A DNA stretch of 48,298 nucleotides from the IMG/VR virus record IMGVR_UViG_3300033565_000024; one strand, written 5' to 3'. The notes under the pieces are model-generated. The model had not been told where the DNA came from, did no database searches, and saw only the letters and a list, made by a program, of their open reading frames with translations. The translations under genes and the position numbers were made by a program. Shown here in pieces: positions 629 through 45,835 of the stretch (position 1 is its first letter; each line of letters begins with the position of its first letter). This DNA is from a virus.

Positions 629-2350
629 ATGATCAATTTACTCTACATCGACTTGTTTGCCGGCGCCGGCGGAACTTCAACCGGGGTTGAATCAGCAACC
701 GTTCACGGGCATAAATGCGCAAAGGTTATTGCATGTGTGAATCATGATGCAAATGCTATTGCAAGCCATGCGGCCAACCACCCGGATGCGCTCCACTTTA
801 CAGAGGATATTCGCACACTGGACCTTACTGATTTAATTGAGCATACAGCAAGAATGCGCAGGATGTTCCCGGATGCTGAATTGGTGATATGGGCCAGCCT
901 TGAATGCACTAACTTTTCGAAAGCTAAGGGGGGACAGCCCCGCGATGCTGACAGCCGGACACTGGCTGAGCATCTGTTCAGGTATATAGAGGCTTTAAAC
1001 CCTGAATTTGTTCAAATTGAAAATGTAGAAGAGTTTATGAGTTGGGGGCCGCTCGATAATAACGGTAAGCCTTTAAGTAAATCCTGCGGAATTGATTATA
1101 TGAGGTGGCTGAAGCATATTCAGGCTTATGGATACCAGTTTGATTTCAGAATATTGAATTCTGCTGATTTCGGCGCCTATACTTCCAGAAAAAGGTTTTT
1201 CGCTCAATTCGCTAAAAATGGTCTCCCCATTTCCTGGCCTGAACCAACGCATGCCAAAAATCCAACATCGGGAACAATGTTTGAAAACGAAGTACTTGAA
1301 AAGTATAAGCCAGTCCGCGAAGTACTGGACCTGAACGATGAAGGTGAAAGCATTTTTAAGCCAGGCAAAATCAAAAGTGAGAAAACAAGGGAGCGGATAT
1401 ATGCCGGGCTTATAAAGTTCGTGGCCGGTGGAAAGGATGCATTTTTGATAAAATGGAATTCAATGTCGCAATCGGGAAAGTATGTTGCCCCCGATATGGA
1501 TCAGCCTTCACCGGTTGTTAGCACTCAGAACAGACTTGGAATTGCAAAGGTTAATTTCCTGTCAGCTTATTACGGTAATGGCGACAATGTGAGTTCAATT
1601 GACGGACCAGCCCCAACCGTAACCACAAAGGACAGGCTTTCACTTGTACAAACTCAGTTTCTTAACTCATACAACTACAAAGACGAGCCAAAGGATATTA
1701 ATAACCCCTGCCCGACACTTACCACAAAGGACAGATTGAGTTTGGTAAGTCCTCAATTTCTCGATCAGCAGTTCGGGCAAAGCAAACCGGCCAGCATCGA
1801 AGACCCTTGTAACGCTATAACAGCAAATCCTAAGTACGCGCTTGTGAGCTGCGATAATTTCCTGATGAATAATTATTCCGGAGGCGGCCAGCACTCAGAC
1901 ATTGATAAACCGGCACCGGTAATTACATCAGTTCCAAAGCAGAATGTTGTTTCGTGCCAGTATTTTTTGATGAACCCGCAATATTCTAATCCAGGCGGTT
2001 CAGTTGATAACCCATGCTTCACACTTATCGCGCGAATGGACAAAATGCCTCCTTACCTGGTTGTAACCGAAACCGGACAGGCTGCAATTGAGGTGTATGA
2101 ATCGGATACCGAAATGGAGCGAAAAATAAAAGAGTTTATGGCCCTGTATGGTATTGCAGACATCAAAATGCGAATGCTTCGCATACCTGAACTGAAAAGG
2201 ATCATGGGATTTTCCGCAAAATATAAGCTAATCGGTACCCAGGCAGAACAGAAAAAATACATTGGTAATGCTGTTGAAGTCAACACAGCTAAAGCAATAT
2301 GTTCAGCATTGGCAAGTAGATTATTATCACTTAAAACCAGGGTAGCATGA
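629..2350 (+). CDS. DNA (cytosine-5) methyltransferase with expanded, repeated target-recognition region
   Basis: Motif I DLFAGAGG, catalytic-Cys motif SLECTNFSKAKGG (E-C instead of P-C), motif VI QIENVEEF, motif VIII TSRKRFF, motif IX/X RIPELKRIMGF...YIGNAVEV. Confidence 0.88.
   Translation: MINLLYIDLFAGAGGTSTGVESATVHGHKCAKVIACVNHDANAIASHAANHPDALHFTEDIRTLDLTDLIEHTARMRRMFPDAELVIWASLECTNFSKAKGGQPRDADSRTLAEHLFRYIEALNPEFVQIENVEEFMSWGPLDNNGKPLSKSCGIDYMRWLKHIQAYGYQFDFRILNSADFGAYTSRKRFFAQFAKNGLPISWPEPTHAKNPTSGTMFENEVLEKYKPVREVLDLNDEGESIFKPGKIKSEKTRERIYAGLIKFVAGGKDAFLIKWNSMSQSGKYVAPDMDQPSPVVSTQNRLGIAKVNFLSAYYGNGDNVSSIDGPAPTVTTKDRLSLVQTQFLNSYNYKDEPKDINNPCPTLTTKDRLSLVSPQFLDQQFGQSKPASIEDPCNAITANPKYALVSCDNFLMNNYSGGGQHSDIDKPAPVITSVPKQNVVSCQYFLMNPQYSNPGGSVDNPCFTLIARMDKMPPYLVVTETGQAAIEVYESDTEMERKIKEFMALYGIADIKMRMLRIPELKRIMGFSAKYKLIGTQAEQKKYIGNAVEVNTAKAICSALASRLLSLKTRVA
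1499..2068 (+). repeat. Six tandem ~33-aa coding repeats (D-x-P-x-P-T-[VLI]-T...L-V...F-L) inside the C5-MTase variable region
   Basis: DQPSPVVSTQNRLGIAKVNFL / DGPAPTVTTKDRLSLVQTQFL / NNPCPTLTTKDRLSLVSPQFL / EDPCNAITANPKYALVSCDNFL / DKPAPVITSVPKQNVVSCQYFL / DNPCFTLIARMDKMPPYLVV. Confidence 0.8.
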
Positions 2351-3567
2351 CAGATCATTCTTTAAACCTGTTTGGAGTAAAGCGCATTGATTTCAACGAG
2401 CAAATAAGGCTTACATGCGAATCAGTAAATACATATGGGCAATTTCATAAGCACTGGGCCATTGCTTGGAGCATGGGAAAGGATTCCACTGCACTGCTTA
2501 CTCTGATTGTTCAATTAATTGAGACTGGCCAAATAAGGAAACCTGAATCATTAACTGTTTTGAGAGCCGATACCCGCATGGAGCTCCCTCCCCTATGGAT
2601 CGCATCTGAATTCATTATTGAAAAGCTAAAAGGGAAGGGAATTGAAGTAAGGACCGTAATGTCAGATATGGACGACCGGTTTATGACCTACATCCTTGGA
2701 CGTGGTGTTCCGCCCCCATCTAATACCTTCCGGTGGTGTACAGGTCAAATAAAAATTGAACCGATGGAGAAAGCCCTTCGGGATCTTTATAATGAAACTG
2801 GTGAAAAAATATTGATGCTTACAGGTGTGAGGCAGGGTGAAAGCGCAATTCGTGATGGCAAAATACATATGAGCTGTGCTAAGGGTGATGCAGAATGTGG
2901 TCAGGGTTGGTATCAGACAGGTTTAAGTACGGATTTATGCAGCACACTGGCTCCTTTATTGCATTGGCGTGTATGTTCAATCTGGGACTGGTTAAAGGTA
3001 TTTGCGCCATCAAAGAATTATGGAGAATGGCCAACGGCAATACTTGCAGATGCCTACGGTGGAGATAATGCTGGAGATATAGCAGCCAGAACTGGATGCA
3101 TAGGTTGCCCATTGGCCTCAAAAGACAAAGCCCTGATTGAAGTAATAAAAATAACTGCCTGGAAGCATCTTATTCCATTAATGGAACTAAAACCCCTGTA
3201 TAGAGAAATGAGAAAGCCTCAATATAGACACAGAAAATCAGGAGGTGACAGAACTAAAGATGGGAAGTTAAGTAAGAATCAGCAGCGATTAGGCCCATTG
3301 ACTCTTGAGGCAAGAACATACTTTTTGAATAAAATATTAGACATTCAAAACAGGGTTAACGCGAAATCAAAAGACATTGAATTCTTGCTTATAGACAAAG
3401 AAGAAGAATTAAGGATTCGTGAGTTAATTGATCTTAAAACATACCCAAACGGATGGTCAGGCGAAGAGATTACAGGTGATATTACGCTTGACAATGTTTA
3501 TTCCGATGGTTCGGTAATGCCGATATTATTTAGGGATTGGGTGGGACAATCAGCATTAAACAGTTAA
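2347..3567 (+). CDS. PAPS-reductase-fold / DndC-like ATP-pyrophosphatase (putative DNA sulfur- or other base/backbone-modification enzyme)
   Basis: PP-loop WSMGKDST, FRWCTGQIKIEP, GVRQGESAIR, Cys cluster ARTGCIGCPLASKDK, C-terminal QQRLGPLTLEARTYFLNKIL resembling DndC. ATGA overlap with the upstream MTase. Confidence 0.75.
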   Translation: MTDHSLNLFGVKRIDFNEQIRLTCESVNTYGQFHKHWAIAWSMGKDSTALLTLIVQLIETGQIRKPESLTVLRADTRMELPPLWIASEFIIEKLKGKGIEVRTVMSDMDDRFMTYILGRGVPPPSNTFRWCTGQIKIEPMEKALRDLYNETGEKILMLTGVRQGESAIRDGKIHMSCAKGDAECGQGWYQTGLSTDLCSTLAPLLHWRVCSIWDWLKVFAPSKNYGEWPTAILADAYGGDNAGDIAARTGCIGCPLASKDKALIEVIKITAWKHLIPLMELKPLYREMRKPQYRHRKSGGDRTKDGKLSKNQQRLGPLTLEARTYFLNKILDIQNRVNAKSKDIEFLLIDKEEELRIRELIDLKTYPNGWSGEEITGDITLDNVYSDGSVMPILFRDWVGQSALNS

Positions 3568-3571
3568 CAAT

Positions 3572-6190
3572 ATGAAGACATATACAGAATTCCTGAGAAA
3601 CAAAATAAAACTTGCGCCAAAGAACGGGTTCGAACTGGATATCGAAGAAATCAACCCCGCACTCAAACCGCACAACAAAATAATGGTCAAGTGGCTTGTA
3701 GAAGGTGGCCGCAGAGCTTGTTTCGCATCCTTCGGGTTGCATAAGACAGTCACACAACTTGAAGCTGTCAGATGTACGCTATTGAAGGCAGGCGGAGGCA
3801 TGGGATTAATAGTTTGTCCCCTGAACGTAAAGCAAGAATTTTTTGAAGATTCGAAAAACATTTTGGGATGGAAAACACCTCCGAAATTCATCAGGCGAAT
3901 TGAAGAAACAAGCGGAGACGGCATTTATATCACCAACTATGAAAGCATACGCGACGGCAAACTTGACCCTCGACATTTTAAAGCTGCTTCGCTGGATGAA
4001 GCTTCCATACTTCGCGGGCTGGGTGGTTCAAAAACTTTTCGTGAATTTATGAGGTTGTTTACCGGTGATGCTGGACCGATGGGTTCGCGCCGTGGAGCTG
4101 ATATGATAAAATACCGTTTTGTTGCCACGGCCACTCCTTCACCAAACGATTATATTGAGCTTCTTGCTTATGCTGATTTTCTGGGAGTGATGGATGTAAG
4201 TCAGGCTAAAACCAGGTTCTTTAAGCGCGATTCAACTCAGGCTGATAAATTAACGCTTCACGCACACAAGGAAGACGAATTCTGGCTTTGGGTTTCGTCA
4301 TGGGCCTTATTCACCAGCAAGCCTTCAGATATTACGCTCAACGAAGAAGATGATCTTGGTTACATTTTACCGGAACTGGATCTTCGCTGGCACGAACTTC
4401 CAACCGACCACATCAATGCCGGAATGGAAAAGGATGGACAACAGTATAAAATGTTCAAAGATGCCAGCCTTGGAATCCAGGAAGCTGCAAAAGAAAAGCG
4501 CGACAGCCTAAATGAACGTATTGCCAAAATGATGGAATTAAGACTGGAAAATATTGGCGCACACAGGATTATATGGCATGATCTGGAAGCTGAGAGATAT
4601 GCGATTGAAAAAGCAATTCCAACTGCAATTTCAATTTTCGGTTCACAGGATTACGAAAATCGCGAAGAGGCAATTCTGGGATTTACACATGGTGATTTTC
4701 AGGAACTGGCTGCAAAACCTGTTATTGCCGGTTCCGGGTGCAACTTTCAGCGACACTGCAGCTGGGCAATATACCTTGGGATTGGATTCAAGTTCAATGA
4801 CTTCATTCAGTCTGTTCACCGGTTGCAAAGATTTCTGCAAAAGAACACAGTTAGGATTGATTTGATCTATACAGAATCGGAGGTAAACGTTCGTAAATCG
4901 CTTGAAAAGAAATGGGTTAATCACAATAAAATGGTTTTAAAAATGACTGAAATAATTAAAAAGTATGGCCTTTCTCACTCAGAAATGGCACAGGTGTTAA
5001 GCCGTAAAATCGGAGTTGAAAGGGTTGAAATTACAGGGCGCAATTTCGTCGCAGTTAATAATGACAATGTTGAAGAGCTGGCCGATACAAAAAGGATAAA
5101 AGACAATTCAGTTGGATTGATCCTGACATCAATTCCCTTTTCAACTCAATATGAATACTCCCCAAATTATGCCGATTTCGGGCACTCAGAAAGCAATGAA
5201 GAGTTTTTCAGGCAAATGGATTACCTCACTCCAAATCTTTATCGTGTGCTTATGCCTGGCAGAATTGCGGCTATTCATGTAAAAGATCGTATTATTCCAA
5301 TGGGTTTGTCCGGAATGGGGTGCCAGACAGTTTACCCGTTTCACATGGATTGCATTCAGCATTACACAAAACACGGATTCGCATACATGGGAATGAAAAC
5401 CATTGTAACAGATGTAGTAAGGGAGAACAATCAGACTTACCGCCTCGGATGGACCGAGCAATGCAAGGATGGAACAAAGATGGGTGTTGGTATGCCTGAA
5501 TACCTGCTTTATTTCCGTAAGCCACAAACAGACTTAACAAATGCTTATGCAGATGTTCCTGTAATGAAGGCGAAAAAGGATTGGAAGCGTGAAAATCAGG
5601 AGTGGATAAATCCTAATGGTTATTCTCGCGCACGTTGGCAGATGGATGCAGCCGGATACACCCGCAGCTCAGGAAACAGGGGTATAACTCCAGAAGAACT
5701 TGCAAGCATGGAGCCTGACAAGATTTTCAAATGGTTTCGCGATTATACCAAAAATGAAATTTGGGATTTTGAATACATCGTAAAAATCGCCGAAACGCTC
5801 AAAATGCGGGGAAAGCTTCCTTCGGGGTTCATGTTACTTCAACCGGCCAGTTGGACTGATGAAGTATGGACAGATGTTACCCGCATGAGAACGCTGAATG
5901 GTAGCCAGTGGAGCAACGGAAAGGAAATGCACCTATGCCCTATGCAGTTTGATATTGCAGACCGTGTAATTGAGCAAATGAGTAATCCGGGAGATATAGT
6001 ATTGGATCCTTTCGCAGGTCTTTTCACAACACCATACCGGGCATTGTTGAAAGGCCGAAAAGGTTACGGAATTGAGCTCAGTAATCCCTATTTTCTTGAT
6101 GGAGTTGTTTACTGCAAATCAGCTGAACACGAAGCAAGTATGCCTACCCTGTTTGATATGCTCGAAATGCAGGAAAAGATTTCCGCATAA
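3572..6190 (+). CDS. SNF2-like helicase fused to a beta-class N6A/N4C DNA methyltransferase
   Basis: N-terminal half: FGLHKT (degenerate Walker A), LDEASILRG (DEAx box), VATATPSPNDYIELL (motif III), helicase-C-like GSGCNFQ...QSVHRLQRF. C-terminal half: motif IV LTSIPFSTQYEY then motif I VLDPFAGLFTT...GYGIELS. Confidence 0.8.
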   Translation: MKTYTEFLRNKIKLAPKNGFELDIEEINPALKPHNKIMVKWLVEGGRRACFASFGLHKTVTQLEAVRCTLLKAGGGMGLIVCPLNVKQEFFEDSKNILGWKTPPKFIRRIEETSGDGIYITNYESIRDGKLDPRHFKAASLDEASILRGLGGSKTFREFMRLFTGDAGPMGSRRGADMIKYRFVATATPSPNDYIELLAYADFLGVMDVSQAKTRFFKRDSTQADKLTLHAHKEDEFWLWVSSWALFTSKPSDITLNEEDDLGYILPELDLRWHELPTDHINAGMEKDGQQYKMFKDASLGIQEAAKEKRDSLNERIAKMMELRLENIGAHRIIWHDLEAERYAIEKAIPTAISIFGSQDYENREEAILGFTHGDFQELAAKPVIAGSGCNFQRHCSWAIYLGIGFKFNDFIQSVHRLQRFLQKNTVRIDLIYTESEVNVRKSLEKKWVNHNKMVLKMTEIIKKYGLSHSEMAQVLSRKIGVERVEITGRNFVAVNNDNVEELADTKRIKDNSVGLILTSIPFSTQYEYSPNYADFGHSESNEEFFRQMDYLTPNLYRVLMPGRIAAIHVKDRIIPMGLSGMGCQTVYPFHMDCIQHYTKHGFAYMGMKTIVTDVVRENNQTYRLGWTEQCKDGTKMGVGMPEYLLYFRKPQTDLTNAYADVPVMKAKKDWKRENQEWINPNGYSRARWQMDAAGYTRSSGNRGITPEELASMEPDKIFKWFRDYTKNEIWDFEYIVKIAETLKMRGKLPSGFMLLQPASWTDEVWTDVTRMRTLNGSQWSNGKEMHLCPMQFDIADRVIEQMSNPGDIVLDPFAGLFTTPYRALLKGRKGYGIELSNPYFLDGVVYCKSAEHEASMPTLFDMLEMQEKISA

Positions 6191-6196
6191 ACTAAA

Positions 6197-6211
6197 TAGT
6201 CCCATAGACAA
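6197..6211. promoter_or_regulatory. Copy of the phage palindrome (TAGTCCCATAGACAA) without a recognisable -7 box
   Basis: Matches T(A/T)GTC..T.AGACAA. The segment 9 bp downstream is TAACAAAC, not TAnnTTTG. Confidence 0.3.
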
Positions 6212-6232
6212 TAAAACCAATAACAAACATCC

Positions 6233-6466
6233 ATGAGAAACCTAATCAAAACCATCAAAGAAAGAAAAGAGCTTCGAAAATTCAGGAACAATCTGATACG
6301 GGGACAAAGGGTAAAGATCAAAGCCAGTGAGAGCGAAACGATTTGCACACCTATCATTTTTGTGTCGCAACTCGAACGCAAAGTAGTCATTCACACGAAG
6401 GATCACCCTTACGAATCCTTTGAAATTTCAAAAGTATTTCCAATTAACCCAATTAATAACCAATAA
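6233..6466 (+). CDS. Hypothetical small basic protein
   Basis: 77-aa ORF in the same orientation and tight spacing as its neighbours. No recognisable motif. Confidence 0.5.
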   Translation: MRNLIKTIKERKELRKFRNNLIRGQRVKIKASESETICTPIIFVSQLERKVVIHTKDHPYESFEISKVFPINPINNQ

Positions 6467-6477
6467 AAATCAATCTT

Positions 6478-6762
6478 ATGAAATGCACACGAATCTATTA
6501 TGAAAAATGCTTCAACCTGGGCAACTACCAGAATGAGAAAGTAGGCGTTGAAATCGAACTTGCCGAAGGCGAAACGGCGACACAGGCGCTTGATGCGTCC
6601 AAGAAGTTTGTCGAAAAGAGTAATCCAAAATCAGACAAAAAATTGGAGCTGAATAATGCGAAACACATCATTGAACATAAAGATTCTTTCAGCTACAATG
6701 ATGTTGTAAAAGCTCAGTCTATTATTGACAAATCTCCCGAAGAAGACGACCTTCCATTTTAG
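6478..6762 (+). CDS. Hypothetical protein
   Basis: 94-aa ORF, co-oriented, 6 bp before the next gene. Confidence 0.55.
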   Translation: MKCTRIYYEKCFNLGNYQNEKVGVEIELAEGETATQALDASKKFVEKSNPKSDKKLELNNAKHIIEHKDSFSYNDVVKAQSIIDKSPEEDDLPF

Positions 6763-6768
6763 CCCGTT

Positions 6769-8424
6769 ATGCAAATCACTAAATCAGGAAATTATTTCCG
6801 AATTGCTTTTCATTACAATCCTTACCTGGTTGAAAAAGTAAAACAACTTCCGGAGCGCAGGTTCGATGCATTGAACAAATGCTGGATCGTTCCTGCCTCC
6901 CAGGAGGGTGCTGTCAGGAATTTTGCCGACAGGAATAACTTTTCATTCTGTGTGGATGAGGTTGCCGATGAGACTTATGCCGAAATACCTGCCATGCCGG
7001 AACTCACTCAGGCTATTCCTTTGAAGATGGAAATGTTCCCTTTTCAAAAGACAGGGGTTGCCTATGCGATAGAGAAAAAGAGGTTAATAATCGGGGACCA
7101 ACCTGGTTTAGGCAAATCTTGTCAGGCAATTGCAACGGTTATGGCCGGTAATGCCTTCCCTTGCCTGGTAATTGCTCCATCATCATTAAAGACTAACTGG
7201 GAACGTGAATGGGCTATGTGGACCGATAAGAAGTGCATGATCCTGAATGATGCGGTGAAACGCAATTTTAATCTGTTTTGGGATGCCAACCTTGTTCAGG
7301 TGTTCATTGTCAATTACGAATCCCTCAAGAAGTACTTCGTTGAAAAGATTGAAATTCCGAAAGGTCAGAAGCTTCGCATCAATCACATCCATTTCAAGAA
7401 GCAGTTTGTCGGGATGTTCAAATCTGTGATCATCGACGAATCGCATCGTTGCAAATCATCAGCAACACAGCAGTCGAAGTTTGCAAAGGGAATTTGTACA
7501 GGAAAGGAATACATCCTAGCGTTAACAGGAACCCCGGTAATTAACAAGCCGGTTGACTTAATTAGCCAGCTGGGTATCATTGACCAGATGAATGCATTCG
7601 GAGGTTACCAGGCGTTCAAGCAGCGATATTGTGCCGGTCCTGATGAGGCCAGCAACCTGCGGGAATTGAATTACAGGCTGAATATGACTTGCTTTTACAG
7701 GCGTGATAAACAGGACGTGTTGAAGGACCTTCCCGACAAAATGCGGCAGGTGGCCATGTGTGAAATTTCAACCCGCAAAGAATACCAGGATGCTGAGGCA
7801 GACCTTGTTAAGTACTTACGTGAATACAAGGATGCGGATGATGAAAAGATAGCTCGTTCATTGCGTGGTGAAATTATGGTAACGATTGGAATTCTGAAAA
7901 ACATCAGTGCCCGGGGCAAATTGGCTGATGTGTATGAGTTCGTGGATGATATCCTGGAATCAGGTGAAAAGCTTGTTTTGTTTGCCAATCTGCATGAGGT
8001 TATCAATGCAATAAAGGCTCACTATCCGAAGGCTGTCAGCATTACCGGTATGGATGATATGGCCAGCAGGCAGCAGGCCGTTGACAGCTTCCAGAAAGAC
8101 CCGAAATGTCAATTGATAGTTTGCTCAATAAAAGCTGCAGGAGTTGGTTTAACCCTGACAGCTTCTTCCCGGGTTGCATTTATCGAGATACCATGGACAG
8201 CAGCTGACACGGATCAGTGTGAGGACCGGTGCCACAGGATCGGACAGAAGGATTCAGTTACTTGCACCTATTTTCTGGGGCAGAATACAATTGATGAACA
8301 CATCTACAAGATCATTCAACAGAAACGTGAAATCGCCAAAACCATAACCGGGGCAACGGAACAGGTTGAAGAGAACATTGTCGATTTGGTAGCAAATTTA
8401 TTTAATCAGGAAAGGAAACTGTAA
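6769..8424 (+). CDS. SNF2-family helicase with N-terminal HARP-like domain (SMARCAL1-type annealing helicase)
   Basis: N-terminus YFRIAFHYNPYLVEKVKQLPERRFDALNKCWIVP. DQPGLGKSCQAIA (Walker A), IIDESHRCK (DExH), LTGTPVINKP (motif III), C-terminal QCEDRCHRIGQ. Confidence 0.85.
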   Translation: MQITKSGNYFRIAFHYNPYLVEKVKQLPERRFDALNKCWIVPASQEGAVRNFADRNNFSFCVDEVADETYAEIPAMPELTQAIPLKMEMFPFQKTGVAYAIEKKRLIIGDQPGLGKSCQAIATVMAGNAFPCLVIAPSSLKTNWEREWAMWTDKKCMILNDAVKRNFNLFWDANLVQVFIVNYESLKKYFVEKIEIPKGQKLRINHIHFKKQFVGMFKSVIIDESHRCKSSATQQSKFAKGICTGKEYILALTGTPVINKPVDLISQLGIIDQMNAFGGYQAFKQRYCAGPDEASNLRELNYRLNMTCFYRRDKQDVLKDLPDKMRQVAMCEISTRKEYQDAEADLVKYLREYKDADDEKIARSLRGEIMVTIGILKNISARGKLADVYEFVDDILESGEKLVLFANLHEVINAIKAHYPKAVSITGMDDMASRQQAVDSFQKDPKCQLIVCSIKAAGVGLTLTASSRVAFIEIPWTAADTDQCEDRCHRIGQKDSVTCTYFLGQNTIDEHIYKIIQQKREIAKTITGATEQVEENIVDLVANLFNQERKL

Positions 8425-8507: not shown

Positions 8508-8586
8508 AAACCAAGACATGAAAAGTAATTCACACATTCATTTTCTCGCAGCTAAACGCACCCCTCCACATGAACTGTCTTGGTTT
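8508..8586 (+). repeat. 11-bp perfect inverted repeat (aaaccaagaca / tgtcttggttt) in the long leader of the replication gene
   Basis: 8508-8518 pairs with 8576-8586. 57-nt spacer. Lies between the promoter at 8442-8473 and the ATG at 8643. Confidence 0.5.
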
Positions 8587-8642
8587 CTTTGTGGTTGCAG
8601 CCAGTTGGTGTGTTTGGTTTGCGGGATTTTATTTTTAGCCAT

Positions 8643-9491
8643 ATGATAAAAGACGCGTTCTATTTCACTCACGACAGCAACGCCCGTAACGATGAGAAGA
8701 TTCTCGCCCTGCGGATGAGGCATAAGTCTGCCGGTTATGGCGTTTATTTTATGATTCTTGAAAGGTTAAGGGATTCGAAAGACTACTTGCACATAAAAGA
8801 TTATAATCTCATCGCATTCGATATTAGGGAATCTTCTGAATTGATAAAATCTGTAGTTGAAGATTTTGGATTGTTTGAATTTACAGAAAATGAAGAGGGT
8901 AAATTTTTCTATTCAAAAAGCTTTTGCTCGCGACTTGACGGGCGCGACACGACCCGAGAAAAGGCGAGAATAAGCGGGATGAAAGGTAACCTGATTAAGT
9001 ATAAAATAGTCTCAAAAAATGCCTTAATAAATATGAGTGACGATGATGTTATTAACCTGTATAACAAACAGTTTAATAAAGATGTCGCAACCCGATCGCA
9101 ACCCGATCGCAACCCGATCGCTAAGAAAGGAGAGGATAAGATAGGAGAAGAGAGGATAGGAGATAAAAAAAGCGATCCCCCGCACGATGTTTTTCCAGGA
9201 ATAAAATCAAATCAAAACCTGACTTATGAGGAAACATTATCACAGTTAGAAAATGAATATTCCTGGAAACATGAAATCCAGAAAAATTTTAAATCACTAA
9301 ACGATGATGAATCATTCAAAATTGCAATTAAGCAATTTATGACAGACACAAATATGGATGGAAAATATCCGCGATTGATTTCTGACACGAAGCAGCATTT
9401 TAGGAATTGTTTACAAAAGGGGAAATACCTGAATAGCCCAAAACCAAAGTATGATTCCGGCATTTACGAAGACTGTCCAAGAATAGATTAG
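8643..9491 (+). CDS. DUF4373-type replisome organizer / replication initiator
   Basis: MIKDAFYFTHDSNARNDEKILALRMRHKSAGYGVYFMILERL N-terminus. Sits directly upstream of DnaB. Start moved to ATG 8643, since the longer ORF from 8580 adds a non-protein-like leader. Confidence 0.6.
   Translation: MIKDAFYFTHDSNARNDEKILALRMRHKSAGYGVYFMILERLRDSKDYLHIKDYNLIAFDIRESSELIKSVVEDFGLFEFTENEEGKFFYSKSFCSRLDGRDTTREKARISGMKGNLIKYKIVSKNALINMSDDDVINLYNKQFNKDVATRSQPDRNPIAKKGEDKIGEERIGDKKSDPPHDVFPGIKSNQNLTYEETLSQLENEYSWKHEIQKNFKSLNDDESFKIAIKQFMTDTNMDGKYPRLISDTKQHFRNCLQKGKYLNSPKPKYDSGIYEDCPRID
9085..9121. repeat. Tandem 11-bp repeat tcgcaacccga x3.4 (candidate iterons, putative ori)
   Basis: Copies at 9085, 9096, 9107 plus partial 9118. 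One helical turn periodicity. Inside the organizer gene. Confidence 0.8.
9129..9166. repeat. Purine-rich repeat block (GAGAGGATA x2, ATAGGAGA x2)
   Basis: GAGAGGATA at 9130 and 9150. ATAGGAGA at 9141 and 9156. Immediately follows the 11-bp iterons. Confidence 0.7.
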
Positions 9492-9494
9492 GCC

Positions 9495-10853
9495 ATGATG
9501 AAACAACTTGAAGATAAAGCCCGTGAGAATCAGCAGTATCAAATGGAATTGCTGGCAATGATTCTGAACAATGATGAGGTTTATGTTAAAGCCATTGATT
9601 TCTTACGTCCAGGGCTTTTCACCGGAACAAACCTGATGATTTACGAGGCGTATGTGAAAATGGTAAAGCAATCACAACACCCCGATCCTGTCAGCCTATC
9701 AACAGTAGCGAACATACCGCTCGAAGAGGTTTTAAAAGTAGCCACTTACTACAGCGGAGCACCAATGGATATTAACGCTTTGCTCTATGAGCTTTTTGAT
9801 TATTTTGCCAAAGACAAGCTCACTAAGTTAGGCGCAAACATTAGCCAGCAGATCACGGCAGGAACCCGCTATGAGGATATACTCGAAATCGTTGGCCGCA
9901 CAATCCGAAGCCTTGAGCTTGGAAATAGCAGCTCAGTGATAACCATGCAGGAAGGTGTTAATTCACTGATGGAGCTGATAAATAACAATCGTGCAGTGAA
10001 AGAATTTACCGGAACCCCTACAGGATTTAAACTGATAGATCAACACATGGGCGGGCTTCACCCTGGAAACCTTGTAATTCTTGCCGGTGAAACATCACAC
10101 GGTAAAACAGCCTTTGCACTTTCTATGATGTTCAACAGTGCCGTGTATTTCAACCAACCATCTGCAATCATTTCGCACGAGATGACACATGATGAAATCA
10201 TGAGCCGATTAGCTGCATACGCAACAGAAATCAACGCGAAGCATATTTTAAACGGGAAGCTATCGGATGAAGAAATTTCTATTTTTTCAAACAAAATTAG
10301 TACACTCATTTTTGCGAATATATTTATTCAGGGATTTATAAAACGAGACCTCACAGAGACTGTTTCGGCTATAAGGCTACTTGTCATGCAGCACAGGATA
10401 AAGTACGTTGTGGTTGAAAATGCCGGAAACATAACCGTTAAGGGCGCTTTTAACGATGAGGTAAGGACAGCCGAAATATCAAAAACGCTGAAATCACTGG
10501 CGCTTGAATTAAAAATAACCATTATTCTGATAAGTCACCTTTCGCGCGATAAGGACAATGCGAAGAAACAGCCCGAACTGCACAGACTCAGGCATTCTGG
10601 TCAGTTGGAAGCGGATGCAGATATTGTGATGTTCACATACATGGCGAAACTACACGGGCACGAGTTTTTCCCGGATGACAACGAAATTCCAACACATGGA
10701 AGGGTAAAGACATACATTGCGAAAGGTAGAAGTTACGGCCTAGCTAAAACATATCCAGACTTCATCAAAGAGCTGGTACTGATTCGAGATCATGAAGATG
10801 ATGCAAAGGAAATATACAGCGCAAATAATATTTCACCAAATCTAACATTCTGA
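9495..10853 (+). CDS. dnaB: DnaB-family replicative DNA helicase
   Basis: GFKLIDQHMGGLHPGNLVILAGETSHGKTAFAL (Walker A), VVVENAG (Walker B-like), ILISHLSRD, RHSGQLEADADIV. Confidence 0.85.
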   Translation: MMKQLEDKARENQQYQMELLAMILNNDEVYVKAIDFLRPGLFTGTNLMIYEAYVKMVKQSQHPDPVSLSTVANIPLEEVLKVATYYSGAPMDINALLYELFDYFAKDKLTKLGANISQQITAGTRYEDILEIVGRTIRSLELGNSSSVITMQEGVNSLMELINNNRAVKEFTGTPTGFKLIDQHMGGLHPGNLVILAGETSHGKTAFALSMMFNSAVYFNQPSAIISHEMTHDEIMSRLAAYATEINAKHILNGKLSDEEISIFSNKISTLIFANIFIQGFIKRDLTETVSAIRLLVMQHRIKYVVVENAGNITVKGAFNDEVRTAEISKTLKSLALELKITIILISHLSRDKDNAKKQPELHRLRHSGQLEADADIVMFTYMAKLHGHEFFPDDNEIPTHGRVKTYIAKGRSYGLAKTYPDFIKELVLIRDHEDDAKEIYSANNISPNLTF

Positions 10854-12423: not shown

Positions 12424-12837
12424 ATGCCAGCAAACTTCTATGACCGGTTAGAATTAATTAAACGACAAAAACAAATCGTTGATTGGATTCTAATTGGCTG
12501 GTCAACACGGATGATAACTGATGAGTGTATCAAACTTTGGGGAGTCGGAGAGAGAACCTGCTACAATTATATCAAGAAGGCGCTTGCTATGCTTGAAGAT
12601 AAAGAAGAGCCTGGCCTGAAGATCAAACAGAGGGTCCATACAGAGCGAAGGTTGAAGTTGCTCAGAGATCTCAAAGATAAAGATACTCCATCAGGTGCCA
12701 GAACAGCGCTCAGGATCCTTGACAGCATCGCAAAGATTGACGGTTCCTTGATTGAAAAGGTCGATGTGACATCTGCAGGTGAGCAGATCACCGGAACAGT
12801 GGTAGTACTTCCCGAAAATGGCAGAGAGAGTCAATGA
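12424..12837 (+). CDS. terS: Putative terminase small subunit
   Basis: 137-aa protein immediately upstream of, and overlapping, TerL. HTH-like ITDECIKLWGVGERTCYNYIKKAL. Confidence 0.5.
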   Translation: MPANFYDRLELIKRQKQIVDWILIGWSTRMITDECIKLWGVGERTCYNYIKKALAMLEDKEEPGLKIKQRVHTERRLKLLRDLKDKDTPSGARTALRILDSIAKIDGSLIEKVDVTSAGEQITGTVVVLPENGRESQ

Positions 12838-14353
12838 GATAAAGCCACAGCCTGGCTTTCAAACTGAATTCCTTTCTTCACGTGCTGATATAGTCATTGG
12901 GGGTGGAGCTGCAGGTGCCGGGAAAACATTTGCAGAGTTACTGGAACCACTCAGGAACTACCGGGTTAAAAACTTCGGTGCCATATTCTTCAGAAGAACA
13001 GTCCCTCAGATCAAATCAATCGGGGGACTTCTCGACGAATCAAAAAACATTTATTACAAATTCGGCGCAAAGCTTAATCAATCCAACCTGAGTTGGGAGT
13101 TCCCATCTGGTGCATTGGTGAAATTCCGGAGCCTTGAGCACGAAAAGAATATTTATGATCACCAGGGTGCCCAATACCCGCTGATTATTTTTGACGAGCT
13201 AACTCACTTCACTAAAAAGCAGTTTCTGTATCTGTTATCCAGGAACCGGTCTACCTGCGGAGTTCCGCCTTATGTACGGGCTACTTGTAACCCCGATCCG
13301 GATAGCTGGGTTGCGGAATTGATAAAGTGGTGGATCGACCAGGAGAGTGGATTTCCAATACCGGAACGTGCCGGTAAGATCAGGTATTTTGTCGCTGAAA
13401 AAGATAATTACATCTGGGGCGATACCAGAGAGGAAGTAATTGAAAAAGCCCCATACCTTTTTGATAGTCCGGCGTTTGATGATATTGACAAAAGCCGCCT
13501 GGTAAAATCACTCACATTCATACCCGGATCAATCTATGGCAACAAAATGCTGCTTGAAAAGGATCCTGGATACCTCGCCAACTTGCTTTCTCAGGACGAA
13601 AGTGAGCGGGCCAGACTCTTGGAGGGAAACTGGAAAGTAAGCATGGATGGAAGTGCCTTGTTTGAATTCTCTGCTACATTCAACATTTTCTCAAACTTTG
13701 TTGAAAAGAGTGATACCAGGGTTATAACATGTGATGCCGCAAGGTTCGGGGCGAACCTTGCAATAATCATGGTTTGGAAAGGATGGGAAGTTGTTGCTAT
13801 GCATATATTCACTACTTCAGCACTGGATAAGCTCAGAGATACCATTGAATTTGAACGCGAACGATGGAAAGTACCTAGCTCGGGTGTTCTGGTCGATCAG
13901 GATGGACTTGGAGGTGGATTAGTTGACTTTGGTGGATATGTAGGCTTCTCAGGAGGGGAAACGGCCATGGATGATCCGAAAACAGGGATCAAGGAAAACT
14001 TCTACAACAAAAAGACTCAGTTGTTTTACCGGCTGGCAGAAAAGGTGAATGCCTGCAGGATACTGATCAAGCTGGAAAGAGATAACTGCTTTGTTGATGG
14101 AGTGAACACAACCAAAGTGAAGGTGAAGGGCACAACCTATGAGATTTCAGACCTGATCAGAAAACACCTAAGGTGCATAAAGAAAAAGATCACTGACGGT
14201 GATGGCAAGCTACGAATTAACAGCAAAGAAGAACAGAAAGCTATCCTTGGCGCTGATGAAAGCCCTGATTTTGCGGACACTTTGATGATGAGAATGCAAT
14301 TTGAATACAATCCTGTAACTACCAACAAGGATCTGTCAGGATTATTTTTTTAA
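12818..14353 (+). CDS. terL: Terminase large subunit
   Basis: Walker A GGGAAGAGKT, Walker B LIIFDELTHF, C-terminal nuclease half. 511 aa. Confidence 0.9.
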   Translation: MAERVNEIKPQPGFQTEFLSSRADIVIGGGAAGAGKTFAELLEPLRNYRVKNFGAIFFRRTVPQIKSIGGLLDESKNIYYKFGAKLNQSNLSWEFPSGALVKFRSLEHEKNIYDHQGAQYPLIIFDELTHFTKKQFLYLLSRNRSTCGVPPYVRATCNPDPDSWVAELIKWWIDQESGFPIPERAGKIRYFVAEKDNYIWGDTREEVIEKAPYLFDSPAFDDIDKSRLVKSLTFIPGSIYGNKMLLEKDPGYLANLLSQDESERARLLEGNWKVSMDGSALFEFSATFNIFSNFVEKSDTRVITCDAARFGANLAIIMVWKGWEVVAMHIFTTSALDKLRDTIEFERERWKVPSSGVLVDQDGLGGGLVDFGGYVGFSGGETAMDDPKTGIKENFYNKKTQLFYRLAEKVNACRILIKLERDNCFVDGVNTTKVKVKGTTYEISDLIRKHLRCIKKKITDGDGKLRINSKEEQKAILGADESPDFADTLMMRMQFEYNPVTTNKDLSGLFF

Positions 14354-39761: not shown

Positions 39762-39833
39762 TGCGAGGTGGAGCAGAGGTAGCTCGTTGGACTCATAATC
39801 CGAAGGTCGTAGGTTCGAATCCTGCCTTCGCTA
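39762..39833 (+). tRNA. tRNA(CAT), initiator-like (fMet-type) scaffold
   Basis: Anticodon loop ctCATaa (CAT 39794-39796). 1:72 mismatch (U.U). A11:U24 in the D stem. Runs TGGAGCAG..GGTAGCTCGT and CTCATAA.CCGAAGGTCGT.GGTTCGAATCC closely resemble E. coli tRNA-fMet. Anticodon stem has GGA/UCC instead of GGG/CCC. Confidence 0.85.
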
Positions 39834-39954
39834 CAAATTTTTAAATAGAGGATCGGCACCATTGGTGTAACCCGATCAGGACAGCGGGGCAATTCCTACC
39901 CAGCAAAGAGTGAGGGATTATCCAGGACTCACAAGCAGACGAAAGAGAACCCGG

Positions 39955-41244
39955 TTATTGTGCTGGGTTTTCGCTTTTAAAGAAAGGATGATCTTTTGCT
40001 TTCATTGCAAACTGCAGGCTACTTGCTTTAATGTATTTCCTGAATTGCTTTTCGGTTGTATGCCCGGAAAACGACATGATTACAGGTACCTCAATACCGG
40101 CAAGAAACATATTTGTACATCCTGAGCGCCTGGCCGTGTGCGTTGAAATCAGCTCCCACTTTTCATAAACATTCCTTTCCTTACCGCTGATCATGGAGGT
40201 GGTGATCTCAATCTTTTGATTAAGCTTTGCCATTTTTCCCAGTACCTTCAGCTGCTTGTTCATCTTTTGATTGGATACCGGCCCCGGCAATACATTGTTT
40301 CGCCTGGTCAATATTTCACGTATAACCGGATGCATGGGGATGGTGGTTTTAATCCCAGTCTTTTCACTTATATGCGAAATGTACTGATCATCATTTTTCA
40401 ATCCTTTCAAAACTGAATAGTCACCAAACCTCAGAGCTGTATATGCACCGACCATAAACCGGTCCCGGCAATCAATTAATGATTTTATTGCGCGGTCAAC
40501 ATTTCCTGTAACATTCAAAATCACAAGCTTGTAATGCTCCAGAATTAGCTTTTCATCAATCACAAGGTCTGAAATCTTTTTCAGTTCGATTTCATCCAGA
40601 TAAATTGAATCGCTATCGGCCGATACATTTGTGAAATCATCAGGAAGAAATAAATTGTGTATCCCGTTTGAACGGCCGGCTTTAAAAAACACCTTCAAAT
40701 TTTTGATCAGATCACCGTGAGTGTTTGTCGAATAACCCTTTGCGCCAGACCACTTCAACAGCTCGTTGTATAACTCCATATTTACATCTGAAAACAGGAT
40801 CCTTTGCTTACTATATTTTTCAAACTCCTTTAATGTGTTCAGGGTGGTCAGGTATCTTTTTACTGTGTTTTTTGCCCTTGTCAGGGTAGGGTAGTATCTT
40901 TCTATGAAATCAGTTAGATATTCGCTCTGTGGGGCAGATTTGCTCGGATTCAGATAATTTTCGACAGCTGCAGAGAACTCTTTTGGGGTTGGAATTTTGG
41001 CACATGAAATAAACTGTTCTGAAATTTCCTGAATTGCCTTTTCTAATGTGTCCAGCCGCCCGTTTATAATGAACGCATCCTCATAGCCTTTGATCTCCCT
41101 GGCACGTTGTGATTTCTGATTCCAGTATTTCTCCTTTACAGATATCCCTGCAGGAAATTTATATCGGTTCCCTGAAAAGCGGACAATTGCATCAATTGAG
41201 CTTACATCCCTTTTGTTTGCAAGGTAAAAACCGACTTTGATCAT
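39955..41244 (-). CDS. int: Tyrosine integrase with N-terminal arm-binding and SAM-like domains (Bacteroidota phage/CTn type)
   Basis: 429 aa. YTALRFGD (Arg I), STHTARRSGCTNM (H-x-x-R), FSGHTTEKQFRKYIK (His...Tyr). Adjacent to a tRNA gene. Confidence 0.9.
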   Translation of the reverse strand: MIKVGFYLANKRDVSSIDAIVRFSGNRYKFPAGISVKEKYWNQKSQRAREIKGYEDAFIINGRLDTLEKAIQEISEQFISCAKIPTPKEFSAAVENYLNPSKSAPQSEYLTDFIERYYPTLTRAKNTVKRYLTTLNTLKEFEKYSKQRILFSDVNMELYNELLKWSGAKGYSTNTHGDLIKNLKVFFKAGRSNGIHNLFLPDDFTNVSADSDSIYLDEIELKKISDLVIDEKLILEHYKLVILNVTGNVDRAIKSLIDCRDRFMVGAYTALRFGDYSVLKGLKNDDQYISHISEKTGIKTTIPMHPVIREILTRRNNVLPGPVSNQKMNKQLKVLGKMAKLNQKIEITTSMISGKERNVYEKWELISTHTARRSGCTNMFLAGIEVPVIMSFSGHTTEKQFRKYIKASSLQFAMKAKDHPFFKSENPAQ

Positions 41245-44953: not shown

Positions 44954-45835
44954 ATGAACACACCACAATTGGACTGGCTTGAACAGTTGGACCCGGTAAG
45001 ACTACCGGAACACGAAAAGATCAAATCACAATGGATTTCAACCTTTTCGAAAATTCACAGGGTTGATGAATCACATGCAGCTACCGTTTTTGAAAAGGAA
45101 GCCCTTTACTGGAGAAAGGCCGTATCTGCTGATGAGAAACTGAAGGCGTGTACAAAACTGACACTGTATTCAGCTTTTATGGAACTGGCCGTTAACGGGC
45201 TATCACTGCAGCCTGGCAGCAAATCCGAATGTTTCCTTGAAAGCCGTGGCACAAAAGCCGGCAAAGACACGCAAGGCAATGACACCTACATAAATCTGTG
45301 CTATGTCAGAATCACAGCGTATGGAGAGCTGAACCTTCGTATCATGTCCGGCCAGATCATCAGGATGAAAAATCCTATAGTCCTATACGAGGGTGATCAC
45401 TTTCAACCATTGACTAATGAGCGCGGGGAACTGATCATTGACTACAAACCTATTATACCTCGCAAATCTTCAAAGATTTTCGGCTGCTGGGTGTGTATTG
45501 AATTGCCCGGCGGAAGCCTTGACTTCAAATGGCTTCTGGTTGATGATATTGAGAGGCTTAAAAAATACAGTACTCCTAAATATGCCAATGCAAAACCAAA
45601 TGCATTGTATCAGTCAGAAAACGGAGGTATTGACCCAGGTTTCCTTGAAGCTAAAACAATCAAACACGCTATGCGGTCCTACACAAAATTACGTGTTGGT
45701 GAAAACGTGGCCATGGATGATGAGGCCGAAGAAGTTGAAACCATGGATGCCGATGCAAAAGAGCCTTACGGAAACCCGCTACAAAACAACGCCGAAACAG
45801 TAAAATTTGAATTAAACCCTAACGAATCATTCTGA
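44954..45835 (+). CDS. recT: RecT-family single-strand annealing protein
   Basis: LYSAFMELAVNGLSLQPGSKSECFL, ITAYGELNLRIMSGQI, VLYEGDHF, AKTIKHAMRS. 293 aa. Confidence 0.65.
   Translation: MNTPQLDWLEQLDPVRLPEHEKIKSQWISTFSKIHRVDESHAATVFEKEALYWRKAVSADEKLKACTKLTLYSAFMELAVNGLSLQPGSKSECFLESRGTKAGKDTQGNDTYINLCYVRITAYGELNLRIMSGQIIRMKNPIVLYEGDHFQPLTNERGELIIDYKPIIPRKSSKIFGCWVCIELPGGSLDFKWLLVDDIERLKKYSTPKYANAKPNALYQSENGGIDPGFLEAKTIKHAMRSYTKLRVGENVAMDDEAEEVETMDADAKEPYGNPLQNNAETVKFELNPNESF

Follow-up and report, generated by a model that had tools for sequence, protein, structure and literature searches.

An orphan DndC relative in a probable mosaic of DNA-modification and replication genes of a temperate phage

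Introduction

The viral contig IMGVR_UViG_3300033565_000024 (IMG/VR; 48,298 nucleotides, all of which were analyzed and are referred to here as the window) carries four large genes for DNA-acting enzymes at positions 629 to 8424, one of which encodes a relative of DndC. A preliminary description had read these genes as one undescribed system, either for a nonmethyl DNA modification or for counter-defense. This locus raises two questions, namely, whether the four genes work together and what a DndC relative might do outside a dnd operon.

Results

Genome and locus organization

The contig is circular, with an exact terminal overlap of 127 bp, and is a complete circularly assembled genome (~48.2 kb) of a temperate phage, whose host probably belongs to Bacteroidota. 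The features used in the following analyses are listed with coordinates and, where assigned, strand.

495 to 600: tRNA-like element, 29 nt upstream of the operon
629 to 2350, + strand: C5-cytosine DNA methyltransferase (MTase), 573 aa, long phage type (PF00145, E 2.5e-29; phrog_116, E 4.1e-75)
1505 to 2011, + strand: five tandem ~34-aa TRD-like units inside the C5-MTase (aa 293 to 461; motif scan and unit alignment)
2347 to 3567, + strand: orphan DndC-core homolog, 406 aa (phrog_12882, annotated "PAPS reductase"; E 1.7e-162, full length)
2470 to 2490, + strand: PP-loop motif S-M-G-K-D-S-T of the DndC-like protein (aa 42 to 48), aligning with SGGKDS of DndC
3097 to 3108, + strand: C251-x-x-C254 of the DndC-like protein, invariant in the family and aligned to C280/C283 of Salmonella DndC
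3572 to 6190, + strand: fusion of an SNF2-like motor and a beta-class N6A/N4C DNA MTase, 872 aa (phrog_16, E 7.2e-109, aa 5 to 870)
6233 to 6466, + strand: small ORF, 77 aa, without a significant database match
6478 to 6762, + strand: small ORF, 94 aa, without a significant database match
6769 to 8424, + strand: SNF2-family helicase, 551 aa (SNF2-rel_dom, E 2.6e-24; Helicase_C, E 3.1e-11; phrog_62, E 4.1e-107)
6781 to 6942, + strand: HARP-like domain of the helicase (aa ~5 to 58), with weak matches to Pfam HARP and PDB 4o66
8580 to 9491, + strand: Lin1244-type replication initiator (PF14297, E 1.1e-11; phrog_2562, "replication initiation protein")
9495 to 10853, + strand: DnaB helicase (DnaB_C, E 3.8e-48)
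44954 to 45835: RecT, at the end of the window
47037 to 47705: PDDEXK exonuclease, at the end of the window

All four enzyme ORFs were confirmed on the + strand (629 to 2350, 2347 to 3567, 3572 to 6190, and 6769 to 8424), and domain, PHROGs, and profile matches agreed with the identities first given to them, i.e., C5-MTase, orphan DndC-like protein, SNF2::amino-MTase fusion, and HARP-like SNF2 helicase. Each enzyme is a member of a large phage family already in PHROGs. The genes had been described as packed back to back. This is accurate for the first three, with an ATGA overlap at the C5-MTase stop and DndC-like start and a gap of 4 bp between the DndC-like and fusion genes, but the helicase gene follows the fusion gene only after 578 bp that hold the two small ORFs. 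A PADLOC match of the 77-aa ORF to Cas2 (E 0.0017) was at chance level and was rejected. Because the contig is circular and RecT and the exonuclease lie at the end of the window, the segment is downstream of the recombination genes, as previously proposed; a few small ORFs and the tRNA-like element lie between the exonuclease and the C5-MTase. The initiator and DnaB genes (8580 to 10853, +) directly follow the helicase gene.

Two methyltransferases and a helicase

The C5-MTase passed the PF00145 gathering score (103.2 bits versus a cutoff of 22), and motifs I (DLFAGAGG), IV (LECTNFS, with the catalytic Cys), VI (ENV), VIII (SRKR), and X (GNAV) were readable in its translation. Motif IV has the form E-C-T, whereas P-C-Q is usual. 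Each TRD-like unit opens with a P-x-P-T-[VLI]-T-like motif, and the five units are followed by a partial sixth; no repeat among them was detectable at the DNA level, and homologs contained 1 to 4 strict copies of the motif. As a member of this family, the enzyme would methylate phage DNA at cytosine C5, probably in more than one sequence, and this methylation would hide sites from the restriction enzymes of the host.

The C-terminal half of the fusion contains a PF01555 amino-MTase domain (aa 515 to 840; 63.9 bits versus a cutoff of 26.7), with motif IV (S520-I-P522-F523) ahead of motif I (D812-P-F-x-G816); both were kept in 26 homologs. The N-terminal half (aa 1 to 480) had no Pfam match even at an E of ≤5, and its SNF2 lobe 1 was matched by profile search only. 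Against PDB, the family profile matched an MTase (2zie; E 1.3e-19), lobe 1 of the Sulfolobus SNF2 structure (1z63; E 7.6e-13), and, weakly, SNF2 lobe 2 (1z5z; E 0.067). The fusion also matched the SNF2-type helicases of phrog_62 (E 1.9e-30), and its motor motifs (G-L-H-K-T, D-E-A-S, T-A-T-P, and Q..R..R..Q, for helicase motifs I, II, III, and VI) were conserved. Matches were present in 308 phage isolate records, 171 of which covered at least 80% of the protein, and some isolates label phrog_16 as "DNA helicase/methylase." The fusion would add N6-adenine or N4-cytosine methylation, and the conserved ATPase motifs suggest translocation along DNA while methylating.

The 551-aa helicase scored above the gathering thresholds of SNF2-rel_dom (86.3 versus 24.9 bits) and Helicase_C (44 versus 23.5 bits) and matched PDB 1z63 (E 8.8e-32). 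A resemblance of its N terminus to the HARP domain is plausible: Pfam HARP (PF07443) was the sole Pfam match there (E 0.016; 15.2 bits, under the cutoff of 25), and the top PDB match of the family profile in this region was the SMARCAL1 HARP structure 4o66 (E 0.003; 52 aligned residues). With the initiator and DnaB genes immediately downstream, the helicase is more likely part of the adjoining replication module than of the modification set. Its position and family suggest a SMARCAL1-type annealing helicase that would serve replication or recombination together with the initiator and DnaB.

Gene neighborhoods of the four enzymes

With MTase profiles restricted to the C5 and beta-class families (so that MTase counts are lower bounds) and with loci that are phylogenetically nonindependent, a C5-MTase was found within 10 kb of the DndC-like gene in 31 of 83 viral loci, a beta-class amino-MTase in 29, either one in 47, and neither in 36. 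The fusion was present in ~16 to 22 of these loci and all three genes in ~8, in varying order. A second, independent set of 80 loci from species-representative genomes gave similarly derived lower bounds: 41 loci had at least one MTase, 19 had one adjoining the DndC-like gene, 12 had the fusion, and 3 had the whole trio; in 39, neither a C5 nor a beta-class MTase was nearby. When gene positions were randomized within the same loci, the DndC-like gene was expected to adjoin an MTase in 4.5 to 5.2 of 73 loci; it did so in 17 (~3 to 4 times chance), a number reached in 0 of 10,000 simulations. An MTase also adjoined it in all four isolates examined, namely, Pseudomonas phages Dobby and phiC725A, Rhizobium phage RR1-A, and Microcystis phage Mae-JY29. 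The Pfam families of its immediate flanking genes were diverse, and the commonest neighboring protein cluster occurred in at most 13 of 67 loci.

The reciprocal searches were far poorer in shared loci. The DndC-like gene was nearby in 1 of the 80 nearest C5-MTase relatives and in 2 of the 80 nearest fusion relatives. At 91% identity, the closest homolog of the DndC-like gene resides in a prophage without the other genes, as does that of the fusion (81% identity), and the DndC-like protein matched 18 phage isolate records versus 308 for the fusion. These surveys thus came out against the single system on one of the points that the preliminary description had named beforehand, a lack of co-occurrence in related phages.

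A unified system would consist of all four enzymes, or at the minimum of a trio (C5-MTase, DndC-like protein, and fusion), and would install a new nonmethyl hypermodification, with the SNF2 motors delivering the modifying enzymes along DNA. Tight packing with the ATGA overlap, the excess of MTase adjacencies (17 versus about 5 expected), and the recurrence of the trio (~8/83 viral loci, 3/80 genome loci, and Rhizobium phage RR1-A) accord with such a system, as does one locus (L013) that holds all four genes. In addition, a PADLOC model labeled MTase_II (PDLC03333) matched the PAPS-reductase domain (E 7.5e-20), which may point to the existence of proteins that join this domain to an MTase. Nevertheless, a single new system is unsupported because the nearest relatives of the genes stand without their partners and because, in the loci that share them, the genes come in varying order. 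Together with the many DndC-like loci that lack a nearby C5 or beta-class MTase and the unequal isolate records, these observations make it quite improbable.

We instead favor, with a probability of about 0.7, the interpretation that the segment is the early DNA-modification and replication part of a temperate phage genome, i.e., a mosaic of independently mobile genes and not one multicomponent machine. Considered as a system, it is one more arrangement of freely shuffling phage anti-restriction and replication genes. The earlier suggestion of a multipronged counter-defense fits the data if its parts are independent, but it would not extend to the helicase if, as is more likely, that gene belongs to the replication module. 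Because tight packing and ATGA coupling of the C5-MTase/DndC-like pair recur across phyla (the window, Dobby, and RR1-A), some functional coupling of this pair is possible.

Identity of the DndC-like protein

The DndC-like protein belongs to a family of >5,000 clusters at 90% identity. It shared 51 to 58% identity with proteins from phages of Pseudomonas, Rhizobium, and Microcystis, and relatives at ≥52% identity occurred in genomes of at least 7 bacterial phyla. Its best specific models were TIGR03183 DndC (E 2.8e-34) and PADLOC DndC (E 1.7e-36), along with NF005316; the TIGR03183 score (118.8 bits) was under the equivalog cutoff (290.4 bits). Matches to BrxP (E 2.5e-16) and SspD (E 2.2e-10) were also obtained with PADLOC. 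A comparison by hhalign with a bona fide Salmonella DndC (dndBCDE operon) gave 99.6% over 353 columns, and the AlphaFold2 model (pLDDT, 80.7) had a PP-loop fold.

Residues S42, G44, K45, D46, and S47 of the PP-loop were invariant among 66 homologs, and so was RWC131T in the family, with C131 equivalent to DndC C146. In Salmonella DndC, the [4Fe-4S] cluster cysteines are C146, C262, C273, C280, and C283, and C280 is reported to be indispensable for the cluster (PMC11662687). C146, C280, and C283 are kept in the DndC-like protein (C131, C251, and C254), while C262 and C273 are absent; the invariant family-specific C177 and C184 could substitute for them. The invariant PP-loop, RWC131T, and C251xxC254, along with the hhalign match, argue for an active DndC-core enzyme. 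Loss of catalytic residues, an outcome that the preliminary description had allowed for, was not found.

The gene had also been described as lacking its dnd partners, and for dndB, dndD, and dndE this was borne out: a tblastn search of the window for DndB, DndD, and DndE homologs returned none (best E, >1), and none were near the DndC-like genes at 83 loci from viruses and 80 from genomes.

Possible functions of the DndC-like protein

In recent virome papers, phage "PAPS reductase" is assigned to sulfur metabolism without experiments, and the genes in question may belong to the same family as phrog_12882. Applied here, that interpretation would make the protein a PAPS or APS reductase (CysH), an auxiliary metabolic gene boosting host sulfate assimilation, in keeping with its Pfam PAPS_reduct match (PF01507; E 5e-10) and with APS and PAPS reductases among the top Foldseek matches. 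However, the CysH model NF002537 gave only an E of 0.0037 (16.9 bits versus a cutoff of 154), compared with 1e-34 to 1e-36 for DndC models, and the homology to DndC extends through a C-terminal domain absent from CysH. The C-terminal ECGLH tail of CysH was also absent; the only E-C-G (aa 183 to 185) is upstream of the CxxC. The gene, moreover, sits among DNA-modification and replication genes. We consider the CysH interpretation very improbable. Because MTase adjacency is ~3 to 4 times chance, a nucleic-acid role appears more likely than sulfate assimilation.

The nucleic acid in question might be RNA. Thiolation or other modification of, for example, tRNA, as by TtcA, NcsA, or TilS, could tune translation or shield tRNAs from host anticodon nucleases. 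The PP-loop and conserved cysteines, the absence of DNA-handling partners near the gene, and the tRNA-like element upstream of the operon would suit this role, and the Fe-S tRNA thiolase NcsA and TilS were among the Foldseek neighbors, although these matches were weak (TM, 0.3) and covered only the shared PP-loop core. Over both domains, the closest sequence family is DndC and not TtcA/NcsA, and the enrichment is beside DNA MTases. On these grounds, an RNA target seems unlikely.

In the interpretation that we favor, the protein would act as a PP-loop ATP pyrophosphatase whose cysteines would suit an Fe-S cluster, and it would work without DndB, DndD, or DndE. Most likely, it would adenylate and then thiolate its nucleic-acid substrate, with sulfur mobilized by a host cysteine desulfurase, and thiolation would constitute a third, nonmethyl mark on phage DNA. 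A bolder proposal is one that we advance tentatively, with the odds against it: phrog_12882 may be a self-sufficient nucleic-acid thiolation enzyme that writes a phosphorothioate (PT) or thio-base on phage DNA with only ATP and host sulfur and that has been spread by temperate phages of many phyla as an anti-restriction mark complementing methylation. To our knowledge, every phosphorothioation system described so far depends on an ATPase together with a partner that binds or nicks DNA (DndD/E or SspB/C), and we know of no precedent for a stand-alone PT enzyme. The absence of such partners at the locus therefore counts against stand-alone PT writing.

Discussion

The real question of novelty lies not in the four-gene segment but in a widespread stand-alone DndC relative, i.e., a large, unusually conserved family that is enriched beside DNA MTases and is far closer to DndC than to CysH. 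We found no biochemical work on this family in the literature searched. If it acts on nucleic acids, its study might reveal a modification of DNA or RNA new to phages, and if the thiolation proposal is true, phages would have a DNA modification of a new class. If, in addition, phrog_12882 is the family counted as sulfur auxiliary metabolic genes, it would have been misread in virome studies, and some ecological conclusions would need revisiting. The cultured carriers Dobby, phiC725A, RR1-A, and Mae-JY29 are better test systems than a metagenomic contig.

Comparison with known systems

The nearest known relative of the orphan protein is DndC (TIGR03183), which inserts sulfur in the DndABCDE DNA phosphorothioation system and combines a PP-loop with a [4Fe-4S] cluster. 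Homology spans ~350 residues, comprising the PP-loop domain and the domain that follows, and the SGGKDS-type PP-loop, the RWCT cysteine, and the CxxC corresponding to C280/C283 are all kept. In contrast to DndC, the protein is without the insert that carries C262 and C273 and without the last ~130 residues, and it has its own invariant loop, MSC177...EC184GQGWYQ. Its gene travels with temperate phages rather than in defense islands, and neither the window nor 163 related loci contained dndB, dndD, or dndE. Phosphorothioation by the Ssp and type 4 BREX systems involves the PAPS-reductase proteins SspD and BrxP, respectively, which belong to the same PP-loop/PAPS-reductase superfamily but are farther from the DndC-like protein than DndC is. 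Their partners are SspB/DUF4007 and SspC/BrxC (PMC12839542), none of which is present at the window locus.

Bacillus phages SPR, phi3T, and rho11s encode multispecific C5-MTases. In general description, the window enzyme resembles them: it is phage borne, and its variable region strings together several TRD-like units, all of which include a T-[LVI] motif; its units are ~34 aa long. The helicase shares with SMARCAL1/HARP annealing helicases an SNF2 core preceded by a HARP-like domain at the N terminus, but it has one HARP-like unit with a weak match, is phage encoded, and adjoins a replication initiator and DnaB. The fusion has the same full-length architecture as the phage "DNA helicase/methylase" (phrog_16) of Arthrobacter, Mycobacterium, Pseudomonas (phi297 and F116-like), Flavobacterium, and Rhizobium phages (50 to 72% identity) and, with no difference of note, is an ordinary member of that family.

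Genome organization and early region

Bases 1-127 and 48172-48298 of the window are identical, and this exact terminal overlap of 127 bp identifies the window as a circular assembly of ~48,171 bp. The window is a complete, circularly assembled phage genome. An ORF of ~150 aa spans the circular junction. The nearest homologues of its proteins came from Bacteroidota (among them Draconibacterium, Mariniphaga, and Prolixibacteraceae), and the host is likely a member of the Bacteroidota.

Features of the genome
629-2350 (+), C5-cytosine methyltransferase (C5-MTase; gene 1)
2347-3567 (+), DndC-like protein (gene 2; 406 aa, phrog_12882)
3572-6190 (+), SNF2-like motor fused to a beta-class amino-MTase (gene 3, the fusion; 872 aa, phrog_16)
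6769-8424 (+), HARP-like SNF2 helicase (gene 4; 551 aa)
8580-9491, Lin1244-type replication initiator
9495-10853, DnaB
12818-14353, large terminase
39762-39834 (+), tRNA-Met(CAT) gene, 120 bp from the integrase gene
39955-41244 (-), integrase, followed by regulators and then RecT
44954-45835, RecT
45835-47037 (+), 400-aa ORF between RecT and the exonuclease
47037-47705, PDDEXK exonuclease

The tRNA-Met(CAT) gene beside the integrase may mark the site at which this temperate phage integrates. Given that RecT and the PDDEXK exonuclease lie before the circular junction and genes 1 to 4 after it, the preliminary description was right to place the early-region genes after the recombination genes. 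The 400-aa ORF had no Pfam match and had a relative in only 1 of 83 loci collected with the DndC-like gene. ORF calling recovered all four early genes on the + strand. Their reported back-to-back packing holds for genes 1 and 2, which overlap in an ATGA, and for genes 2 and 3, with a 4-bp gap, but not for gene 4, ahead of which lie small ORFs of 77 and 94 aa with no database match. Scans for sigma-70 promoters and terminators, uninformative in the likely Bacteroidota host, yielded the same counts as shuffled sequence, and a megablast search of the four-gene region against 50,697 phage records matched nothing.

A tRNA-like element (495-600, + strand) is located 29 nt 5' of the C5-MTase start. 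The Rfam tRNA model matched it at 45.1 bits (E = 3.2e-7) against a gathering score of 29. Its acceptor, D, and T arms are good, and 43 nt stand in for the 11 nt expected at the top of the anticodon arm. ARAGORN called no tRNA here by default and an unconvincing tRNA-Glu (13-nt intron, long extra arm) in intron mode; no similar sequence was found in the loci compared (L001 to L247). Possible readings are a tRNA that has been disrupted, one that bears an insert, or an element that only resembles a tRNA.

Methyltransferases and SNF2 proteins

The gene-by-gene annotation of the preliminary description was judged correct. Gene 1 encodes a C5-MTase (PF00145, E = 2.5e-29; phrog_116, E = 4.1e-75) with the full set of catalytic motifs in its translation. 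Its variable region is filled by five ~34-aa tandem units (aa 293 to 461; window 1505-2011, + strand), each opening with a P-x-P-T-[VLI]-T-like motif, and a partial sixth comes after them. The copy number of the motif differs among homologues of 540 to 980 aa; Tandem Repeats Finder detected no DNA-level repeat in this region. Multispecific phage C5-MTases carry stacked target-recognition domains, which the units of gene 1 recall. The repeat pattern suggests that the units are such domains and that methylation is multispecific.

Gene 3 carries a beta-class amino-MTase domain (PF01555) in which motif IV (S-I-P-F) precedes motif I (D-P-F-x-G). No Pfam model matched its N-terminal half, even at E <= 5. 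A profile of 26 family sequences did match 1z63, a Sulfolobus SNF2 ATPase (E = 7.6e-13), and the family keeps helicase motifs I, II, III, and VI; on these grounds, the description of gene 3 as an SNF2::MTase fusion probably holds. The fusion had matches in 308 phage isolate records, with coverage of 80% or more of the protein in 171, under annotations including "DNA helicase/methylase," "SNF2 family helicase," and "DNA methylase N-4."

Domain and structure matches identified gene 4 as a standard SNF2 helicase. Its HARP label derives from two weak, concordant matches (Pfam HARP, E = 0.016; SMARCAL1 HARP structure 4o66, E = 0.003 with the family profile). Gene 4 fits better with the adjacent replication module than with an anti-restriction role.

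Co-occurrence of the early genes

The region had been proposed to form one undescribed DNA modification or anti-restriction system. We surveyed the neighborhoods of the DndC-like gene in 83 viral loci (80 viral contigs and three phage isolates) and in 80 loci from species-representative genomes; the viral loci were searched in six frames with profiles from the window's proteins, and neighbors were taken as same-strand ORFs.

Genes found near the DndC-like gene (number of loci)
Viral loci (±10 kb, n = 83): C5-MTase, 31; beta-class amino-MTase, 29; either MTase, 47; fusion, ~16-22; C5-MTase + DndC-like gene + fusion, ~8 (order variable)
Species-representative genomes (±8 kb, n = 80): C5-MTase, 27; beta-class amino-MTase, 22; either MTase, 41; fusion, 12; C5-MTase + DndC-like gene + fusion, 3

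Neither MTase family was present in 36 of the 83 viral loci. Reciprocally, a DndC-like gene was near only 1 of the 80 nearest C5-MTase relatives and 2 of the 80 nearest fusion relatives; the C5-MTase and fusion were found together in 39 of 80 fusion-seeded loci. A 91%-identical DndC-like gene and an 81%-identical fusion each occur in a prophage without the other genes. Any one neighboring protein cluster was common to at most 13 of 67 loci, and neither neighbor clustering nor a Pfam scan of 144 immediate neighbors revealed a conserved partner of the DndC-like gene; its commonest annotated neighbors were MTases. Sparse reciprocal co-occurrence, lone closest relatives, and the lack of a common neighbor cluster together indicate that the arrangement is a mosaic of independently mobile genes, each from a populous PHROG family, and the single-system proposal was not upheld.

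In the prophage locus with the 91%-identical gene (L085), a reverse transcriptase gene (RVT_1; L085 positions 6949-7902) precedes that gene by ~2 kb, and RVT_1 was also detected in one immediate neighbor in the viral set.

Placement and predicted function of the DndC-like gene

The DndC-like gene directly adjoins an MTase gene in 17 of 73 loci, compared with 4.5 to 5.2 expected when its position among each locus's genes is random. A count of 17 was never reached in 10,000 simulations, although the phylogenetic nonindependence of the loci means that this significance is overstated. The placement is nonrandom. In all four phage isolates examined, the gene abuts an MTase gene, with differing order and side: the C5-MTase is upstream in Pseudomonas phage Dobby (overlapping) and Rhizobium phage RR1-A (with the fusion 3.4 kb further upstream), an amino-MTase is downstream in Microcystis phage Mae-JY29, and a C5-MTase followed by an adenine MTase is downstream in Pseudomonas phage phiC725A.

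Members of the family are numerous and closely similar, forming >5,000 clusters at 90% identity but only 135 representatives at 50% identity (E <= 1e-30). At least 52% identity is kept across Bacteroidota, Pseudomonadota, Actinomycetota, Myxococcota, Acidobacteriota, Gemmatimonadota, and Fibrobacterota, and the window's protein is 56% identical to the homologue of a Microcystis (cyanobacterial) phage. Among longer members, a distant 580-aa protein (P0276) has an N-terminal DUF6884 (E = 1.5e-30) fused to the DndC-like PAPS_reduct domain, and in another (P0313), which may be an assembly artifact, part of an SNF2 protein is linked to the C-terminal half of a DndC-like protein; neither fusion is informative.

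In two 2026 papers, phage "PAPS reductases," possibly including members of this family, are treated as sulfur auxiliary metabolic genes, with experiments acknowledged to be lacking (PMC13369170; 10.64898/2026.02.18.706556), and in another paper, phage PAPS reductase homologues are said to "deserve further investigation" (PMC11437467). No functional study of the phage DndC-like family was found in the literature searched. Pfam assigned only the generic PAPS_reduct domain to the window's protein, and the CysH model reached only an E value of 0.0037; a CysH-type metabolic enzyme is unlikely. MTase adjacency, full-length homology to DndC, and an early DNA metabolism position point to a nucleic acid-directed function over sulfate assimilation.

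Inferring every biochemical step from protein families, we propose that the two MTases would act independently of each other to shield phage DNA at restriction sites, with the SNF2-like motor of the fusion probably supplying translocation. The DndC-core enzyme would most likely adenylate a nucleic acid oxygen via its PP-loop, and an Fe-S cluster or a cysteine persulfide, supplied by a host cysteine desulfurase, would swap the adenylated oxygen for sulfur. An alternative still in play is that the enzyme acts on tRNA or other RNA, as do TtcA, NcsA, and TilS. Foldseek searches with an AlphaFold2 model returned generic PP-loop folds only (APS/PAPS reductase, FAD synthase, GMP synthase, NcsA, TilS, and LarE; TM, ~0.3) and no DndC structure, leaving the C-terminal domain unmatched. 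A PDB sequence search gave no match, and an exact search of assemblies for the protein gave no record. An IbrA-type C-terminal domain (DUF3440) was rejected, as Pfam was empty for aa 260 to 406. The role of orphan phage DndC homologues is a general question rather than one specific to the window, and the cultured phages suit it better.

Comparison with DndC

The best specific models for the DndC-like protein were TIGR03183 DndC (E = 2.8e-34), PADLOC DndC (E = 1.7e-36), and the unnamed NF005316. With hhalign, the family profile aligned to the bona fide DndC of a Salmonella dndBCDE operon with 99.6% probability over 353 columns (DndC residues 17 to 410 of 543). Three features do not vary within the family: the PP-loop SMGKDS, the cysteine of RWCT, and C251xxC254. 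In the alignment, C251 and C254 correspond to C280 and C283 of Salmonella DndC, of which C280 is reported to be indispensable for the [4Fe-4S] cluster (PMC11662687). Unlike DndC, the protein lacks the C262/C273 insert and the last ~130 DndC residues, and its family has its own invariant loop, MSC177xxxxxEC184GQGWYQ. This loop is disordered in the AlphaFold2 model and might be a cofactor-binding loop modeled without its cofactor. The gene had been called an orphan, which is borne out for DndB, DndD, and DndE, all absent from the window and from 163 related loci. Because the protein also scored well below the DndC family cutoff (118.8 versus 290.4 bits) and is missing parts of DndC, its sequence identifies it as a DndC-core homologue and not as a DndC in the family sense.
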